A stretch of DNA of 39,769 bases, from positions 1-39,769 of the IMG/VR virus record IMGVR_UViG_2541047701_000005. The stretch is one strand, 5' to 3'. The position numbers were made by a program, and so were the translations under genes. This DNA is from a virus. Taxonomy: Duplodnaviria > Heunggongvirae > Uroviricota > Caudoviricetes. Shown here piece after piece: positions 2,308 through 32,096 of this stretch (its first letter is position 1; the number at the start of each line of letters is the position of its first letter). The notes under the pieces were generated by a model. That model was not told the origin of the DNA. It did not search any database and saw only the letters and a program-made list of their open reading frames with translations.

Positions 2308-2565
2308 ATGATGTACAGCAAATACGATGAGGCGCAGTTCCACTTGAGGCTTACGCACGAGTTGCACGCTAAGATTAAGCAGCGTGCAAAAATGAATAAC
2401 AGGTCTATCAATTCCGAAATTGTGGCTACGATGGAAGAATCACTCTCCAAACCATCACCTGTAAGCGGGTATCGTGATGAAGAAGAGAGATTGGCCTCAT
2501 TAATCTCGGAGCGAGTAAAAGAAGTTGCGGCTGATATCCTTAGAAAAGAAAAAACCCGCGATTAA
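2308..2565 (+). CDS. mnt: Mnt-like ribbon-helix-helix repressor (85 aa)
   Basis: Internal ATG of listed ORF 1912..2565, preceded by GGTGAGG RBS. NNRSINSEIVATMEESLSKPSPVSGYRDEEERLA resembles P22 Mnt (NGRSMNSELL...SKPSPVTGYRNDAERLA). The upstream part of the listed ORF is antisense to the tailspike gene and not coding. Confidence 0.7.
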   Translation: MMYSKYDEAQFHLRLTHELHAKIKQRAKMNNRSINSEIVATMEESLSKPSPVSGYRDEEERLASLISERVKEVAADILRKEKTRD

Positions 2566-2579: not shown

Positions 2580-2801
2580 TTAGTTATCAAAAAGTCCGTA
2601 CGTTTCTTCTTCTTCAGGTGTAAGGGGAAGAATCTCTACTCTATCTATAGATACCTTTTCAATGTACCCATGAGGTCTACTTAAAATTAAAGCTCTCTCA
2701 TGCCACAGAACTCCAAGAATGTGATACCTTCCAGCATCGCCTTTTACCCTGGCTCTTCCTTTGATTCTTGGCGGCATAATGCCATATTTTTTCTTTGCCA
2801 T
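2580..2801 (-). CDS. Hypothetical protein (73 aa), last gene of antirepressor operon
   Basis: ATG start overlaps the stop of the upstream Ant gene (TAATG coupling). No recognisable motif. Confidence 0.5.
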   Translation of the reverse strand: MAKKKYGIMPPRIKGRARVKGDAGRYHILGVLWHERALILSRPHGYIEKVSIDRVEILPLTPEEEETYGLFDN

Positions 2802-3526
2802 TATGCAACATTACTCCCATGAATCAGGTGTTGTAGTGCTTTAACACCTTCCTCATTGTAGCGGAACGCTTCCACCTGTTTGCTGGAATGCGCAGATTTA
2901 TCCAGGAAGAACTTCCCGTACTGCTCAGTTTTGAGGTTGTTTGCGTTAGCAATGCGACCAATCTTGTTGGCCGTTACTCCAAGCTGCTCTGCAACCTCCC
3001 CTGCTGAGTAGTAATGCTCTTCTATTGCCGGAAGAGGTATTGCATTAAAACCAACGAGCGGGTTGATTATACTTGCTGCCGCTGTCTGCTTTGCCTCCGG
3101 CGCAAGATTTGGCATCAGATCGAACAGATTGGTAACAGCTTCAACCGTCATTTTCAATGTTCGCGCTTGACGATACTCAACAAGTCCACTCGCTGATTTA
3201 CCGCTTTTAATGTGCGCTTCCTGCATACTTTCAAGTTTGTCTACAAGTGTTCGGCGAACTGCTTTAGATTCGCGAGCAGCAACACGAAGCGCCTGCTTGA
3301 TAGTCATGGAGATAACATCAATGTCAGCCCCGTTTTTCCGACCTACACTTTTTGTGTAGGTCTCGCCTTCCAATTCATCCTCAATTTTCTCGATGAATTT
3401 GTTGTTACGTACTGATGGCTCTCCACATAACTTGCGAGCTTCATTAACCATCATCAGAAGACTTTGGCTGTCAATGGTTTTATCCGTGACAACGGATCCG
3501 ATGTTTGCTACATTCTTAAAAGTCAT
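2801..3526 (-). CDS. ant: Antirepressor Ant (KilAC/AntB-type C-terminal domain), 241 aa
   Basis: Start chosen at internal ATG 3526 (MTFKNVANIG...) with AAGGAA RBS. C-terminal region YSAGEVAEQLGVTANKIGRIANANNL...FRYNEEGV is typical of phage antirepressor C-terminal domains. Confidence 0.6.
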   Translation of the reverse strand: MTFKNVANIGSVVTDKTIDSQSLLMMVNEARKLCGEPSVRNNKFIEKIEDELEGETYTKSVGRKNGADIDVISMTIKQALRVAARESKAVRRTLVDKLESMQEAHIKSGKSASGLVEYRQARTLKMTVEAVTNLFDLMPNLAPEAKQTAAASIINPLVGFNAIPLPAIEEHYYSAGEVAEQLGVTANKIGRIANANNLKTEQYGKFFLDKSAHSSKQVEAFRYNEEGVKALQHLIHGSNVA

Positions 3527-3594
3527 TAGGCATTCCTTATGTGGTAGTAAGGGTGTGACATAGGCCGCCAGCAGCACACTGGCGGTTTTCTTTT
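3521..3594 (+). ncRNA. Candidate sar-like antisense RNA covering the ant RBS and start codon
   Basis: Plus-strand promoter-like GTGACA (3486-3491), 17-nt spacer, TGcTACATT extended -10 (3506-3514). Plus-strand intrinsic terminator CCGCCAG-CAGCACA-CTGGCGG (3565-3585) followed by TTTTCTTTT. Predicted ~70-75 nt transcript antisense to the ant translation initiation region, analogous to P22 sar. Confidence 0.35.
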
Positions 3595-3613
3595 GCGCCG
3601 TCCTGTGCACCAA

Positions 3614-4240
3614 TCAATGAATCCATTCCTCGCCGCGAAGTTTTGCCAGCATTGGCTGAGCGTTCTTTACGACAAAATTGTTGGTATCAAGATTCTTCAT
3701 TTCACGAAGAAGTGATTTCTTGGTTTCTTCTGACATGTAGCGAGTCTCATATGCAATATCGTAAATCCTTCCTGAAAGCTCAGAACCAATTTGCTTCATT
3801 CCTGGGTAGATGTGTTTGCACATTTGTTGACTCTTCTCCATCCACAATTGTAAGTAGCAGAGATTAACCAGTTCTTCGTCAGTAAACTGTTTTGCAATCG
3901 GTGAGCATTCTGCCTGCCGATCCAAAATATCCAGCACCCAGCGGCGGAACTCTTTGGCTACCGGAGTGCGAGCAAACATCGCGATTAGGTGGGCACCGCG
4001 TAGTGAGAAAACTCGCACTTTTTTGCGATAATTTCCTGAGGTACTCACTTCGAGTACCTGAGTCATTCCGGCGCTAAACTCATCGCTATACTTGTTATAA
4101 ATCATTGTTACTGCACGACTATTTGCGTATTTAAGTGCAGATGCAATATTAGATGATGTAAACCAAACACCATGCATATCACGGGTGGGCACCAACTCAA
4201 CTCCGTGGAAGTTGTAATCTGATTTTGCTACAATATTCAT
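3614..4240 (-). CDS. Bro-N domain protein (antirepressor N-terminal-type), 208 aa
   Basis: Start at internal ATG 4240 (MNIVAKSDYNFHG...) with AGGAAA RBS. Motifs HGVWFTSSNIASALKY...FRRWVLDIL are typical of Bro-N/AntA domains. Same frame as the downstream Ant ORF, separated by one TGA and 87 nt. Confidence 0.6.
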   Translation of the reverse strand: MNIVAKSDYNFHGVELVPTRDMHGVWFTSSNIASALKYANSRAVTMIYNKYSDEFSAGMTQVLEVSTSGNYRKKVRVFSLRGAHLIAMFARTPVAKEFRRWVLDILDRQAECSPIAKQFTDEELVNLCYLQLWMEKSQQMCKHIYPGMKQIGSELSGRIYDIAYETRYMSEETKKSLLREMKNLDTNNFVVKNAQPMLAKLRGEEWIH

Positions 4241-4313
4241 GTTAGTTTCCTTGCATACGGTTACTGACATAGAGGCCCGGTTTGTGTTCGCGCACTGCCG
4301 GGCTTCACTATTT

Positions 4314-4487
4314 TTATTGGATGACAACATCGCCCTTTGCCTCAAGTTTCATCAATAACTCCATTCGATAAGCTATCTCTGCCTGAATTGACCTATGGCA
4401 TCTTTTTGCTGATTCGCGGATATGTGAATCAACCTTTTCTGTAAAACGAACCTGACGCGGCTTGATGGAAGATATCTTTTCAGTCAT
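4314..4487 (-). CDS. arc: Arc-like ribbon-helix-helix repressor (57 aa), first gene of antirepressor operon
   Basis: Not in ORF track (<60 aa). ATG at 4487 with AGGAG RBS 7 nt upstream. Translation MTEKISSIKPRQVRFTEKVDSHIRESAKRCHRSIQAEIAYRMELLMKLEAKGDVVIQ has a beta-strand then two helices like Arc/MetJ family proteins. Confidence 0.55.
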   Translation of the reverse strand: MTEKISSIKPRQVRFTEKVDSHIRESAKRCHRSIQAEIAYRMELLMKLEAKGDVVIQ

Positions 4488-4586
4488 TATGCACTCCTGT
4501 TTTTAAAAAACTCATAATCTCACTTTTTGTAGTTTGATTATTCACTCACACTCACTATGAGTCAATGAATTTTTTATGGTGAACTA
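4488..4586. promoter_or_regulatory. Divergent promoter/operator region (Pant-like leftward; promoter of CI-like paralog rightward)
   Basis: 99-bp AT-rich intergenic region between divergent genes. Contains repeated CTCACT/ACTCA motifs and the inverted repeat ACTCA-cta-TGAGT. Confidence 0.35.
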
Positions 4587-5228
4587 ATGAATTTTGACGA
4601 TCAATTCCCATCAAGAGTATCTCTGGCAAGACAGTCCAGGGGTATGACGCAGGCGCAGTTGTCGAAATTAGCTGGTGTTGTTCAACGTCAAATAGCTGCA
4701 TACGAGGGTGGTGAGGCTAAACCACGGCTTCGGGTATTGCAGGCATTAGCCAACGCATTAGGTACTACGGCTGAGTGGTTAGCTCTAGGTGAAGGTCAGG
4801 GTCCGGGAACAAAAAACGTCATGCCTGACGTTCTGGTAAAGCAAATACCAATCCTCAAACTAGATGAAGTTATGCATTACCTAAACACAGGTGAACATTC
4901 ATCGTCTAGATTTCATCCAGCAATATACAATGTTGGTGACTCTGCATTTGCATTGACTATTGAAGGTGAAGCTATGACTACAAGTTCAGGTATTAGTTTT
5001 CCCAGAGGATCGGTTGTCACGTTCAGCCCTCTAGTAAAAGCTAAAAGCAAAGATTATGTAATAGCATCATTGGATAAAGAGCAAATATTGAGCTTCAAAC
5101 AGGTTTACATTGGTGAAATAGAGACAAACCTAGTATCCCTAAACCCAATGTATCCTAATATTCTTGTTAGAAATGAAGATGTTAGTATTTTGGCAACCGC
5201 AGTTTACCTTGAAATCCCGTTGCTTTGA
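4587..5228 (+). CDS. CI-like repressor paralog: HTH (XRE-type) N-terminal domain plus lambda-CI-like C-terminal (S24-type) domain lacking the catalytic Ser
   Basis: 213 aa. N-terminus RGMTQAQLSKLAGVVQRQIAAYEGG is an HTH. C-terminal DSAFALTIEGEAMTTSSGISFPRG...SFKQV...LNPMYPNIL aligns by eye with lambda [28 protein letters not shown]...FTFKKL...LNPQYPMIP; the Ser149 position is Ala and there is no Ala-Gly cleavage site in the linker. Confidence 0.6.
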   Translation: MNFDDQFPSRVSLARQSRGMTQAQLSKLAGVVQRQIAAYEGGEAKPRLRVLQALANALGTTAEWLALGEGQGPGTKNVMPDVLVKQIPILKLDEVMHYLNTGEHSSSRFHPAIYNVGDSAFALTIEGEAMTTSSGISFPRGSVVTFSPLVKAKSKDYVIASLDKEQILSFKQVYIGEIETNLVSLNPMYPNILVRNEDVSILATAVYLEIPLL

Positions 5229-24070: not shown

Positions 24071-24194
24071 AGTATTTTCACTATCGCCTATCTGCTAGCT
24101 CGCCATTGAGATTCACCACAACGATAAGAGCACTGCGCGGCACCTTTCACCAATTCCGCGAGGTCTGCGGGTTCAATGCTCTTACCTGTTGTGC

Positions 24195-24239
24195 AAATAA
24201 AAAAGCCACCGTTGCAACTTAAGAGTCACTAACGGCAGC
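24195..24239 (-). terminator. tR'-like intrinsic terminator downstream of pR'
   Basis: Minus-strand hairpin GCTGCCGTT...AACGGTGGC (with wobble pairs, internal palindrome GTTGCAAC) followed by TTTTTTATTT. Confidence 0.5.
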
Positions 24240-24249
24240 TTACCTTCTA

Positions 24250-24279
24250 ATTATGGCTAAATGGCTAATTGCATGTCAA
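24250..24279 (-). promoter_or_regulatory. Late promoter pR' (-35 TTGACA, 18-nt spacer, -10 CATAAT) overlapping the Q stop codon
   Basis: Consensus -35 hexamer at 24274-24279 and -10 at 24250-24255 on the minus strand, immediately at the 3' end of Q. Confidence 0.55.
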
Positions 24280-28810: not shown

Positions 28811-29656
28811 TCACTCCTGCGCCCATGAAGGCATTTCAGTTTGTCCGTAATCTTTAGCGGCAAAGTTTTCCTGCATAGCTCGATGCTGCGGCCTAGGTTG
28901 AGGTTTCCCCTTTGGAGTCTTGGGCTCAAAAATCCCCTGCCAACCACTGGCGATGCTCTGGTTTATAATTTCTTCAGGTGTATATCCCTTCTCCAGACTT
29001 CTGCTTAGAACGTTGATAGCCTGAGTGACACTTTGCTTAGACTTGATCGACTTACCTATCTCCTTGCGATAGGTAACCCACGACAACCATGTTTCTGCTG
29101 ATAACCAATCAGGCAACTCTGTTTCTAGCGGGTCGAACTTCTGAGAAACTTTTTTGGGGGATATAGGGGGTTTATTAATATTTTCTTTTGTCTTTAAAGA
29201 ATGTCTTTTGTGTGTCTCTAACTTCGAGACATTGAGTGTCTCTAATTTGGAGACATTTTTTGTCTCTAACTTCGAGACAAAGTTGCTAACTTGGAGACAC
29301 TTGCTGAATTGCCACGCAGATACCTCCCTGTTTACACCGATTTTATTTCCATCCATAAACAAGCAATTCATTGAAATCAGTTCTTTTTTAGCCTTGTTAA
29401 CATTCTGCCTTGACAGTCCTGTTAACTGAGCAATTTGCTCATCGGCTATTCGATCTGTTTTCTTATTGAATCCATATGTTTTCCGGACGTAGGCCAGCAT
29501 AACTTTCAACTGGCGAGCGGTTAAATCGGCACTTGCGATAGCTTCCAGCAGCTCGTTAGCGAATCTGGTGTAACCATCATCGATATCAGCCACTCTTAGC
29601 TCCTGTTCGGCAAAGTTACCTCTGCCGAAGTTGAGTATTTTTGCTGTATTTGCCAT
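28811..29656 (-). CDS. O: Replication initiator O-like protein (lambda-O-type N-terminal domain)
   Basis: N-terminus MANTAKILNFGRGNFAEQELRVADIDDGY is near-identical to lambda O; the internal repeated peptide SKLET corresponds to the DNA iterons. Confidence 0.85.
   Translation of the reverse strand: MANTAKILNFGRGNFAEQELRVADIDDGYTRFANELLEAIASADLTARQLKVMLAYVRKTYGFNKKTDRIADEQIAQLTGLSRQNVNKAKKELISMNCLFMDGNKIGVNREVSAWQFSKCLQVSNFVSKLETKNVSKLETLNVSKLETHKRHSLKTKENINKPPISPKKVSQKFDPLETELPDWLSAETWLSWVTYRKEIGKSIKSKQSVTQAINVLSRSLEKGYTPEEIINQSIASGWQGIFEPKTPKGKPQPRPQHRAMQENFAAKDYGQTEMPSWAQE
29161..29299. repeat. Replication origin: four ~19-bp iterons (TGTCTCTAAcTTcGAGACA type) with ~24-bp periodicity plus adjacent AT-rich region, inside the O gene
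   Basis: Iterons at about 29213-29231, 29237-29255, 29261-29279 and 29283-29299; each is internally palindromic (TGTCTC...GAGACA); AT-rich stretch 29161-29212. Confidence 0.8.
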
Positions 29657-29688
29657 AATGACTCCTGTGGATTGATCCAGTAATGACC

Positions 29689-29988
29689 TCAGAATTCCAT
29701 CTGGATTTGTTCAGAACGCTCGGTCTTGCACACCGGGCGTTTTTTATTGGTGAGTCCATCAAGCGCATACTTAAAAGCCCTGCTAATCGGACTGATATCT
29801 GATGCCATTCCGAAAGCACACAGGACCGAAGCAATAAATCTCCAGTCCGTTCTGCTTATCTTCGATTCATGACAGCCAATCATCTTTGCCAGACCGCGCT
29901 GTGTAAGCGTTGACAGGTTGATGAGTAAATCTGTTTCTGCGCGATCAACGTCGCGCTGTGATAGTTTGCTGTAACTTGTTTGTTCCAT
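29689..29988 (-). CDS. cII: CII-like transcriptional activator
   Basis: 99 aa; C-terminus LTNKKRPVCKTERSEQIQMEF is near-identical to lambda CII (ILTNKKRPAATERSEQIQMEF); N-terminal half diverged. Confidence 0.8.
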   Translation of the reverse strand: MEQTSYSKLSQRDVDRAETDLLINLSTLTQRGLAKMIGCHESKISRTDWRFIASVLCAFGMASDISPISRAFKYALDGLTNKKRPVCKTERSEQIQMEF

Positions 29989-31660: not shown

Positions 31661-31912
31661 ATGCTTGAGGCTAGAGTTGCAAAGCTAGAGTCTGATGTTG
31701 AATACATCAAGCGCGATCTCGCTGAGGTAAAATCAGATATAAAATCTGTTGATTCTCGTCTGTCAGGTATTGAGACAAGTATTAGCTCAGCAAAAACCAC
31801 CATTAAGGCATCTGCGGTCGTTGTCAGTTTCGTGTTCGCATTTTGCGCCTACATTTTTGGAAGTTATGTTTCCAAAATCCTTGATGCCTTAAACGGACTC
31901 GTTCTTAAGTAA
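31661..31912 (+). CDS. Small coiled-coil membrane protein (83 aa from the GGAGG-preceded ATG; 123 aa if started at 31541) in the rexB position, XhlA-like architecture
   Basis: MLEARVAKLESDVEYIKRDLAEVKSDIKSVDSRLSGIETSI is an amphipathic coiled coil, followed by a single C-terminal TM helix AVVVSFVFAFCAYIFGSYV; the RBS GGAGGT sits 4 nt upstream of ATG 31661. Confidence 0.45.
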   Translation: MLEARVAKLESDVEYIKRDLAEVKSDIKSVDSRLSGIETSISSAKTTIKASAVVVSFVFAFCAYIFGSYVSKILDALNGLVLK

Positions 31913-31918
31913 CACACA

Positions 31919-31945
31919 ACCCGGCCTCAGTGCCGGGTTTTCTTT
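31919..31945 (+). terminator. Intrinsic terminator ending the cI-cassette transcript
   Basis: ACCCGGC-CTCAGT-GCCGGGT hairpin followed by TTTCTTTG, directly after the stop codon at 31912. Confidence 0.65.
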
Positions 31946-32096
31946 GCCTCTCGATCCCCCTTCCCAACAACACATAACCATTTGTATTTATTGGAAAACT
32001 AATAGATACAACTTGCTAAACAGTGCAATTCTGATCCCTCACCTACCTAACAATTCACCCCTGCAAAAAATAAATCCATATAAAAAACATACAGAT

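Follow-up and report, generated by a model that had tools for sequence, protein, structure and literature searches.

Two antirepressor-type genes, ant1 and ant2, stand in tandem on the minus strand of the phage genome IMGVR_UViG_2541047701_000005 (IMG/VR; positions 1 to 39,769 of the record, the whole stretch being called the window below), and the locus raises the question of whether the second of them is controlled by an antisense RNA of its own. An earlier note on this DNA had proposed such an RNA, similar to the sar RNA of phage P22, over the translation start of the gene here named ant2. We consider it probable (about 0.75) that the plus-strand segment 3486–3594 is a small-RNA gene, which we call sar2, and that its predicted antisense RNA of ~73 nucleotides (nt) pairs with the ant2 mRNA and blocks ribosome binding. 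This reading is based on sequence elements, on the improbability of their joint occurrence, on conservation at synonymous sites, on covariation in the terminator and on strand specificity, from which we infer transcription, RNA ends, repression and timing. Each ant gene of the tandem arc-like/ant1/ant2 operon would then have a private antisense RNA.

A candidate antisense RNA gene over the start of ant2

The elements that make up the candidate, and the gene on which they lie, are the following (lengths of proteins in amino acids, aa).

2801–3526, minus strand: ant2, 241 aa, PHROG 1726 'anti-repressor', without Pfam domain
3524–3539, minus strand: translation initiation region of ant2, with the Shine-Dalgarno sequence TAAGGAA at 3539–3533 and the ATG at 3526–3524
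3486–3491, plus strand: −35 hexamer GTGACA of the putative promoter Psar2, in ant2 codons 12–14
3506–3514, plus strand: extended −10 element TGc-TACATT of Psar2, in ant2 codons 5–7
3521–3594, plus strand: predicted antisense RNA sar2, ~72–74 nt, with its +1 at A3521 and its 3′ end in the U-tract
3522–3559, plus strand: 5′ domain of sar2, an imperfect hairpin closed by GUC(A)/(U)GAC that contains the anti-Shine-Dalgarno sequence UUCCUUA and the complement of the start codon
3562–3594, plus strand: predicted intrinsic terminator of sar2, consisting of a stem-loop (3562–3588, 7-nt loop) and a U-tract (3586–3594)

Both the sequence itself and a consensus scan confirmed the promoter-like site described in the earlier note, i.e., GTGACA and TG-n-TACATT on the plus strand, separated by 17 nt, within the first codons of the antirepressor gene. 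Psar2 extends over ant2 nt +13 to +41 (codons 5–14) and matches the consensus at 9 of 12 positions in addition to the TG; its hexamers, spaced at 17 ± 1 nt, and the TGn before the −10 are those of a sigma-70 extended −10 promoter. The predicted +1, A3521, is located 7 nt past the −10 and corresponds to the wobble base of ant2 codon 2 (nt 6). An RNA that started there would be fully complementary to positions of about −68 to +6 of the ant2 mRNA, and the complementarity to the ribosome-binding site and start codon that had been claimed is indeed present, the Shine-Dalgarno sequence (3533–3539) and the AUG (3524–3526) both lying within 3521–3594. A small peptide encoded by 3521–3594 was considered and ruled out, the single ATG of this segment giving M-W-stop.

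The terminator had been described as a 7-bp GC stem with a 7-nt loop. The loop, the seven pairs and the U-tract are as described, and only the all-GC character of the stem was overstated, since the core stem (3565–3571/3579–3585) contains seven Watson-Crick pairs of which six are G-C and one is A-U. Two G-U pairs and one further A-U pair lengthen the stem to 3562–3588 (10 pairs, 6 G-C). On the plus strand, this G+C-rich stem-loop runs into a U-tract (TTTTCTTTT, 3586–3594), as is typical of intrinsic terminators. The minus-strand side of the hairpin is followed by CTATGTCACACCC, which contains no U-tract; a minus-strand terminator at 3562–3588 can thus be ruled out, in agreement with the earlier note, and the same holds in the 21 lineages compared below.

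The frequency expected by chance was estimated over both strands of the 39.7-kb window with 100 first-order Markov, composition-matched randomisations. Because promoter-like sites alone are no commoner than chance (5 seen in the window versus 7.1 ± 2.6 in shuffles), we counted those with a strong terminator on the same strand 30–90 nt downstream. Two such pairs are present in the whole window, versus a mean of 0.01 in randomised sequence. One is sar2 and the other is the following unit.

29631–29743, plus strand: OOP-type antisense unit, the only other pair of promoter and strong terminator in the window

The TG-extended promoter of this unit is located at the start of a replication-initiator gene (ATG 29656, minus strand), and its terminator (29713–29743) falls within the 3′ end of a cII/C1-like gene of 99 aa (29988–29689, minus strand); no Rfam family matched it at the gathering score. 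Since this second case has the OOP arrangement, the joint criterion also picks out a recognised kind of phage antisense RNA.

Conservation of the promoter and of the terminator

Loci encoding relatives of Ant2 were collected from IMG/VR (80 loci) and from a set of bacterial genomes with one genome per species (34 loci, including Serratia, Citrobacter, Proteus, Erwinia, Kluyvera and Buttiauxella), which yielded 59 distinct upstream/5′ sequences. The motif GTGACA-N17-TGn-TAnAnT is found at an identical distance from the ATG in 56 of them. The three exceptions (L042, L043 and L046, all from IMG/VR) encode proteins with 92% identity to Ant2 over residues 5–237 and a different N-terminus with a GTG start, and they have neither the promoter/terminator cassette nor a match to R1, a covariance model derived from the sequences of sar2. 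A contig labelled Chryseobacterium sp. 18061 (L093), whose assembly is possibly contaminated or mislabelled, also carries an ant1-sar2-ant2 locus of the typical enterobacterial kind.

A codon-level test was performed on codons 2–30 of 30 distinct ant2 5′ coding sequences (60–100% protein identity). All five wobble sites located inside the promoter elements are invariant, two of them in the −35 (gene nt 36 and 39) and three in the extended −10 (nt 15, 18 and 21), as is nt 6, the codon 2 wobble base corresponding to the predicted +1. Among the other 23 third positions, invariance is restricted to nt 48 and to the G of a Met codon (nt 78). The probability that the five promoter sites would all fall among the eight invariant ones by chance is C(8,5)/C(29,5) ≈ 5e-4. 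The peptide encoded by the same segment is poorly conserved (residues 2–12), codons 5, 6, 7 and 12 specifying N/T, V/L, A/T/S and V/I/T/A/S, respectively; every one of these replacements keeps the promoter-critical base, and variation within the −10 is confined to its two least informative positions, 3 and 5. Pairing between the two RNAs cannot explain the invariant promoter bases, because these lie upstream of the predicted transcript. The simplest explanation of this pattern would be that Psar2 is a promoter under purifying selection, in which case sar2 would offer a clean example of a promoter kept by selection at synonymous coding sites.

The RNA structure was tested on an alignment of 21 distinct lineages (A3), in which covariation was compared with that in 500 shuffles and in slid controls. 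The terminator stem is paired in 95.2% of cells, and four of its ten pairs exhibit changes on both sides. In Erwinia, for instance, CCAG/CUGG is replaced by CCAA/UUGG, and wholly different stems, AGCCGAUAG/CUAUCGGCU and ACCAGCAG/CUGCUGGU, are present in Kluyvera and another enterobacterium. The terminator has a covariation score of 0.289 versus a shuffle mean of 0.156; none of the 500 shuffles reaches 0.289, and the slid controls do not exceed 0.103. A U-rich tract follows the stem on the antisense strand in 21/21 lineages and on the sense strand in none, and the basal G-U pairs of the stem can form on the plus strand only, corresponding to C-A mismatches in the sense RNA. In the 5′ domain, the closing stem is paired in 84.5% of cells, and one of its pairs has changed on both sides; the interior of this domain is not conserved in sequence and cannot be aligned between lineages.

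Relation to P22 sar and possible portability of the cassette

No sar match, nor a match to any other family, was obtained when the whole window was searched with Rfam at the gathering threshold. In the segment 3300–3800, the Rfam sar model (RF00262; gathering score 43 bits), which scores 97.8 bits on P22 as a positive control, gave no match even at E ≤ 10, and the searches of 3300–3800 and 4100–4450 with Rfam at E ≤ 10 returned only terminator-driven sub-threshold matches (SgrS, ctRNA, SymR) and no sar. Pairwise alignment of sar2 with P22 sar likewise detected no meaningful similarity. The protein targets are equally distinct: Ant2 has no detectable similarity to P22 Ant by BLASTP (E = 59), and its searches with Pfam (E ≤ 10), NCBIfam and PDB profiles gave nothing beyond a weak helix-turn-helix (HTH) hint, PHROG 1726 ('anti-repressor') being its sole family match. 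The sar-like reading of the earlier note is supported by the layout, i.e., an antisense-reading promoter in the 5′ end of ant2 and a predicted ~73-nt RNA over the ribosome-binding site with its terminator in the spacer, and it is much strengthened by the conservation of promoter and terminator. It needs qualifying in three respects: sar2 stays below the gathering score of the sar family, the protein targeted is no P22 Ant homologue, and the gene upstream of ant2 is ant1 and not arc.

The resemblance in architecture is nevertheless extensive. P22 sar (RF00262; NC_002371 15021–15090, 70 nt) and the predicted sar2 are both cis-antisense RNAs of ~70 nt whose promoter lies in the first ~40 nt of the target gene and fires outward. 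Both span the upstream spacer including the Shine-Dalgarno sequence, both combine a 5′ hairpin with a terminator hairpin, and both end in an intercistronic spacer of a Pant-type operon located in the interval between gene 16 and the tailspike gene. They differ in that the promoter of P22 sar is located at ant nt +7 to +35, its RNA starts at −1 (one base upstream of the ATG) and its terminator directly adjoins the end of arc, whereas the sar2 promoter is placed 6 nt deeper in the gene, so that the sar2 RNA would also cover the AUG. Moreover, P22 sar ends in CUUCAACUUUA, whereas sar2 has a classical U-tract, and the target and upstream gene are Ant and arc in P22 versus the unrelated Ant2 and a second ant gene (ant1) here.

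Other phage antisense RNAs offer partial parallels. Like the OOP RNA of lambda and P22, sar2 would be a short cis-antisense RNA with a constitutive-looking promoter and an intrinsic terminator; unlike sar2, OOP overlaps the 3′ end of its target gene (cII/c1). OOP acts through RNase III-dependent decay and not through occlusion of a ribosome-binding site. The c4 RNA of P1 and P7 (immI, Rfam C4) blocks translation of the icd-ant antirepressor operon by pairing around the ribosome-binding site; it lies ahead of its target on the same strand, is released from the operon transcript by processing and uses short segments for its pairing in trans. The location of sar2 on the opposite strand and the lack of any Rfam family at gathering score in the window set it apart from c4-type RNAs. 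The mechanism class has been known since 1987, and in the literature searched we found only the P22 sar/immI system described and no second sar-type RNA. The paper on phage epsilon34 indicates that the HS-1-type 'ant morons' seem to lack arc.

A second antisense element was identified on the plus strand of the same operon, over the start of ant1.

3614–4240, minus strand: ant1, 208 aa, antirepressor with Bro-N and P22_AR_C domains
4226–4316, plus strand: 'sar1', a diverged homologue of P22 sar over the ant1 start, with TGc-TACAAT at 4226–4234

The predicted +1 of sar1, G4241, directly follows the CAT of ant1, and the predicted RNA (4241–~4316) comprises a 5′ hairpin (GUUAGU/ACUGAC), a terminator hairpin (4272–4306) and a U-run (4311–4315) overlapping the stop codon of the arc-like gene. 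Its sequence (TTGCTACAATATTCATGTTAG versus TTGCTATACTATTCATGTTGG in P22 sar) can be aligned with P22 sar and a further 19 elements of this type, an alignment in which five pairs covary, and its fold has a z of −5.3. In the window, sar1 itself is below the Rfam thresholds; the Rfam sar gathering score is passed at the sar1 position in three related loci (L073, L089 and L091). The C-terminus of the Ant1 protein is homologous to P22 Ant (E = 1e-9). On these alignments, sar1 is the true sar homologue of this phage and would guard ant1, as sar2 would guard ant2. Neither element is annotated in any of the records inspected.

sar1 and sar2 share operon, strand and architecture, as well as xTA-GCA codons spelling TGC-TA and the sequence TGACATAG just before the terminator; unlike sar2, sar1 can be aligned with P22 sar and has relatives recognised by the Rfam sar model. 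The sar2 model retrieved neither sar1 nor P22 sar at E ≤ 10. A distant common origin of the two elements is possible. In the window, the only match of the sar2 model is at 3521–3597, with 79.7 bits (by construction); two weak sub-threshold matches, at 24194–24266 (minus strand, 16.8 bits) and 31862–31946 (plus strand, 14.9 bits; E ≈ 0.5–1.3 for the two), probably correspond to terminator-like hairpins.

Outside the window, the sar2 model finds independent relatives in the Klebsiella phages KP12 and phiKp_30 and in the Salmonella phage SPN3UB. The sar2 element is present in 84 of 5,426 complete Escherichia coli genomes and also in prophages across many Enterobacterales. The gene ahead of ant2 is nearly always an ant1 of the Bro-N type whose C-terminus varies, and where other genes are located upstream, homology stops immediately past the U-tract. 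The SPN3UB-type Salmonella phages share the 3′ end of ant1 and the terminator hairpin, followed by a different antirepressor-class gene with an ORF6N domain. In SPN3UB (NC_019545, L003, locus 2412–2533), homology to the window starts just upstream of the hairpin, at window position 3561, and the first codons of this gene, gp22, carry TCGACA-17-TGcTACATT in antisense orientation, the peptide over this promoter being the related N-V-A-x4-V-V; the sar2 model scores 50.5 bits there (E = 1e-8). The cassette thus appears to behave as a unit able to precede different genes, with its terminator at a mosaic joint. In three further loci, one from Erwinia tracheiphila (L108) and two from Pseudomonas (L110 and L115), an antisense hairpin followed by a T-run is located upstream of locus position 1501, directly before the start codon of genes that are distant relatives of the N-terminal region of Ant2, which hints that antisense cassettes before antirepressor-like genes are widespread.

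Genes carrying such cassettes among those analysed here encode PHROG 1726 Ant2, the ORF6N protein gp22 of SPN3UB and, with the classical sar, Bro-N Ant1. We tentatively suggest, with somewhat less than even confidence, that antisense cassettes are portable units (promoter in the first ~14 codons, leader and terminator) placed on non-homologous antirepressor-class genes, that the promoter dictates part of the N-terminal peptide (...N/T-V/L-A-x4-x-V-T/D...), that the terminator serves as a recombination joint and that tandem ant operons are tuned gene by gene. Two such predicted RNAs in one operon of one phage, one of them similar to sar in architecture, unrelated to it in sequence and placed on an unrelated antirepressor-class gene, indicate that control of the sar type extends beyond P22 ant. 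The chief value of the locus would lie in the synonymous-site evidence, in the arrangement of one RNA per antirepressor and in the portability of the cassette.

Proposed control of ant2 and context of the operon

The window corresponds to the P22-like (Lederbergvirus) genome of an E. coli phage, 98% identical to Escherichia phage JEP4 over the ant region. The operon forms an immI-type 'ant moron' on the minus strand, flanked by a gene-16-type DNA-transfer gene and by the tailspike gene, and contains, besides ant1 and ant2, the following features.

4537–4565, minus strand: Pant-like promoter, TTGACT-17-AATAAT, 10 of 12 consensus matches
4314–4487, minus strand: arc-like ribbon-helix-helix gene, 57 aa, first gene of the operon, with a weak ParD-like match
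minus strand, after ant2: orf73, an open reading frame of 73 aa
2573–2552, minus strand: terminator at the end of the operon

Judging from its position, the Pant-like promoter drives the arc-like gene, ant1, ant2 and orf73. The protein encoded by the arc-like gene is named 'Arc family DNA-binding protein' in RefSeq. The spacer between the ant1 stop codon and the ant2 ATG is 87 nt long. An alternative start of ant1, raised by a coordinate conflict with RefSeq, was rejected, the conflict being explained by a strain-to-strain indel, and the ATG at 4240 (MNIVAK) was kept. Convergent with the operon is a gene of the Arc/Mnt family (Mnt-like, 85 aa; 2308–2565, plus strand), whose 3′ end overlaps the hairpin 2552–2573. 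On the minus strand (TTTTTTCTTTT), this hairpin makes a good terminator; the plus-strand sequence after it, AGTTGGTT, is a poor U-tract, and plus-strand transcription may read past 2552–2573, in antisense, into orf73 and ant2.

Antirepressors determine if a prophage remains silent, and their tight control matters for induction, prophage cross-talk and superinfection immunity. In the mechanism that we propose, the sigma-70 extended −10 promoter in ant2 codons 5–14 would start transcription at ~A3521, and the transcript would end at the intrinsic terminator, at ~3592–3594. The resulting RNA would pair with the ant2 mRNA over ~73 nt, blocking ribosome binding and possibly triggering cleavage of the duplex. 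The ant2 mRNA itself would be made either from the Pant-like promoter or by transcription of the late operon that reads through toward the tailspike gene. Arc-type repression could not silence such late read-through, and an antisense RNA over each initiation region would block each antirepressor; sar2 would prevent synthesis of the second antirepressor-type protein when it is unwanted, in analogy to the action of P22 sar on ant. The head-on Psar2 may contribute through transcriptional interference, and the terminator may also halt antisense read-through from the Mnt-like gene. These steps are modelled on P22, as treated in the papers on epsilon34 and UAB_Phi20 and, reportedly, in the work by Liao et al. 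and by Wu et al. (1987).

Several observations weigh against an antisense RNA gene directed at an antirepressor. The Psar2 match (9/12) is by itself unremarkable. The predicted fold of sar2 (−25.1 kcal/mol) is only modestly better than that of shuffled sequences (z = −2.2), and it places the anti-Shine-Dalgarno sequence within a stem and not in an exposed loop, so that the model gives no sign of the rapid kissing-loop pairing of P22. An Ant2-type protein can apparently exist without the cassette, as suggested by the three related loci mentioned above. Homology between sar2 and sar is not demonstrated by the sequence comparisons, the Rfam sar model missing sar2 and the sar2 model missing both sar1 and P22 sar. 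Finally, it is the label of PHROG 1726 that suggests a role of Ant2 as an antirepressor.

Part of these observations would suit a promoter that is real and acts mainly by transcriptional interference, or by collision of RNA polymerases, with Pant or late transcription, the short RNA being a by-product. Psar2 fires head-on into the ant operon only ~35 nt inside ant2, and both the sequestered anti-Shine-Dalgarno sequence and the poor sequence conservation of the inner 5′ domain speak for it. We regard this as unlikely, since a covarying terminator bounds a ~73-nt RNA over the whole initiation region in every lineage, whereas interference needs no conserved 3′ end; in addition, P22 sar is reported to work in trans (Wu et al. 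1987). It is more doubtful still that only the terminator is functional, stopping plus-strand read-through from the Mnt-like gene via orf73 and ant2, with an incidental promoter-like site. Such read-through is made plausible by the AGTTGGTT that follows the 2552–2573 hairpin, and promoter-like sites are common; however, this would leave unexplained the five invariant promoter wobbles and the invariant +1, the fixed offset between promoter and ATG, and the retention of the cassette in SPN3UB, KP12 and phiKp_30 despite a different downstream context.

The structure could also act in the sense mRNA, where one hairpin would sequester the Shine-Dalgarno sequence while the stable stem-loop would stabilise the RNA or be a site of processing; the ant1:ant2 expression ratio would be set in this way, without any antisense RNA. 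Mirror-image hairpins can indeed form on minus-strand RNA, where TAAGGA can pair with an upstream CCUUA. However, the sense leader of ant2 folds no better than shuffled sequences (z = −0.47 versus −2.2 for the antisense RNA), the G-U pairs become C-A mismatches, the U-tract is found on the antisense side only, and the conservation of a promoter within the coding sequence would not be accounted for, which makes this explanation about as improbable as the preceding one; sense-structure and antisense mechanisms could coexist. A chance juxtaposition without function, to which the ordinary score of Psar2 lends itself, is the least probable of all: the joint occurrence is expected only 0.01 times per window, and the conservation of the elements across genera effectively refutes it. 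The antisense RNA gene sar2 thus remains the reading that we favour.

Divergent from the Pant-like promoter, at the position occupied by mnt in P22, the window contains a gene (4587–5228, plus strand) for a repressor of the LexA/cI type with HTH and Peptidase_S24 domains; JEP4 has an additional C2 repressor in immC. The presence of this second cleavable repressor suggests that expression of the ant operon may be RecA/SOS-coupled.

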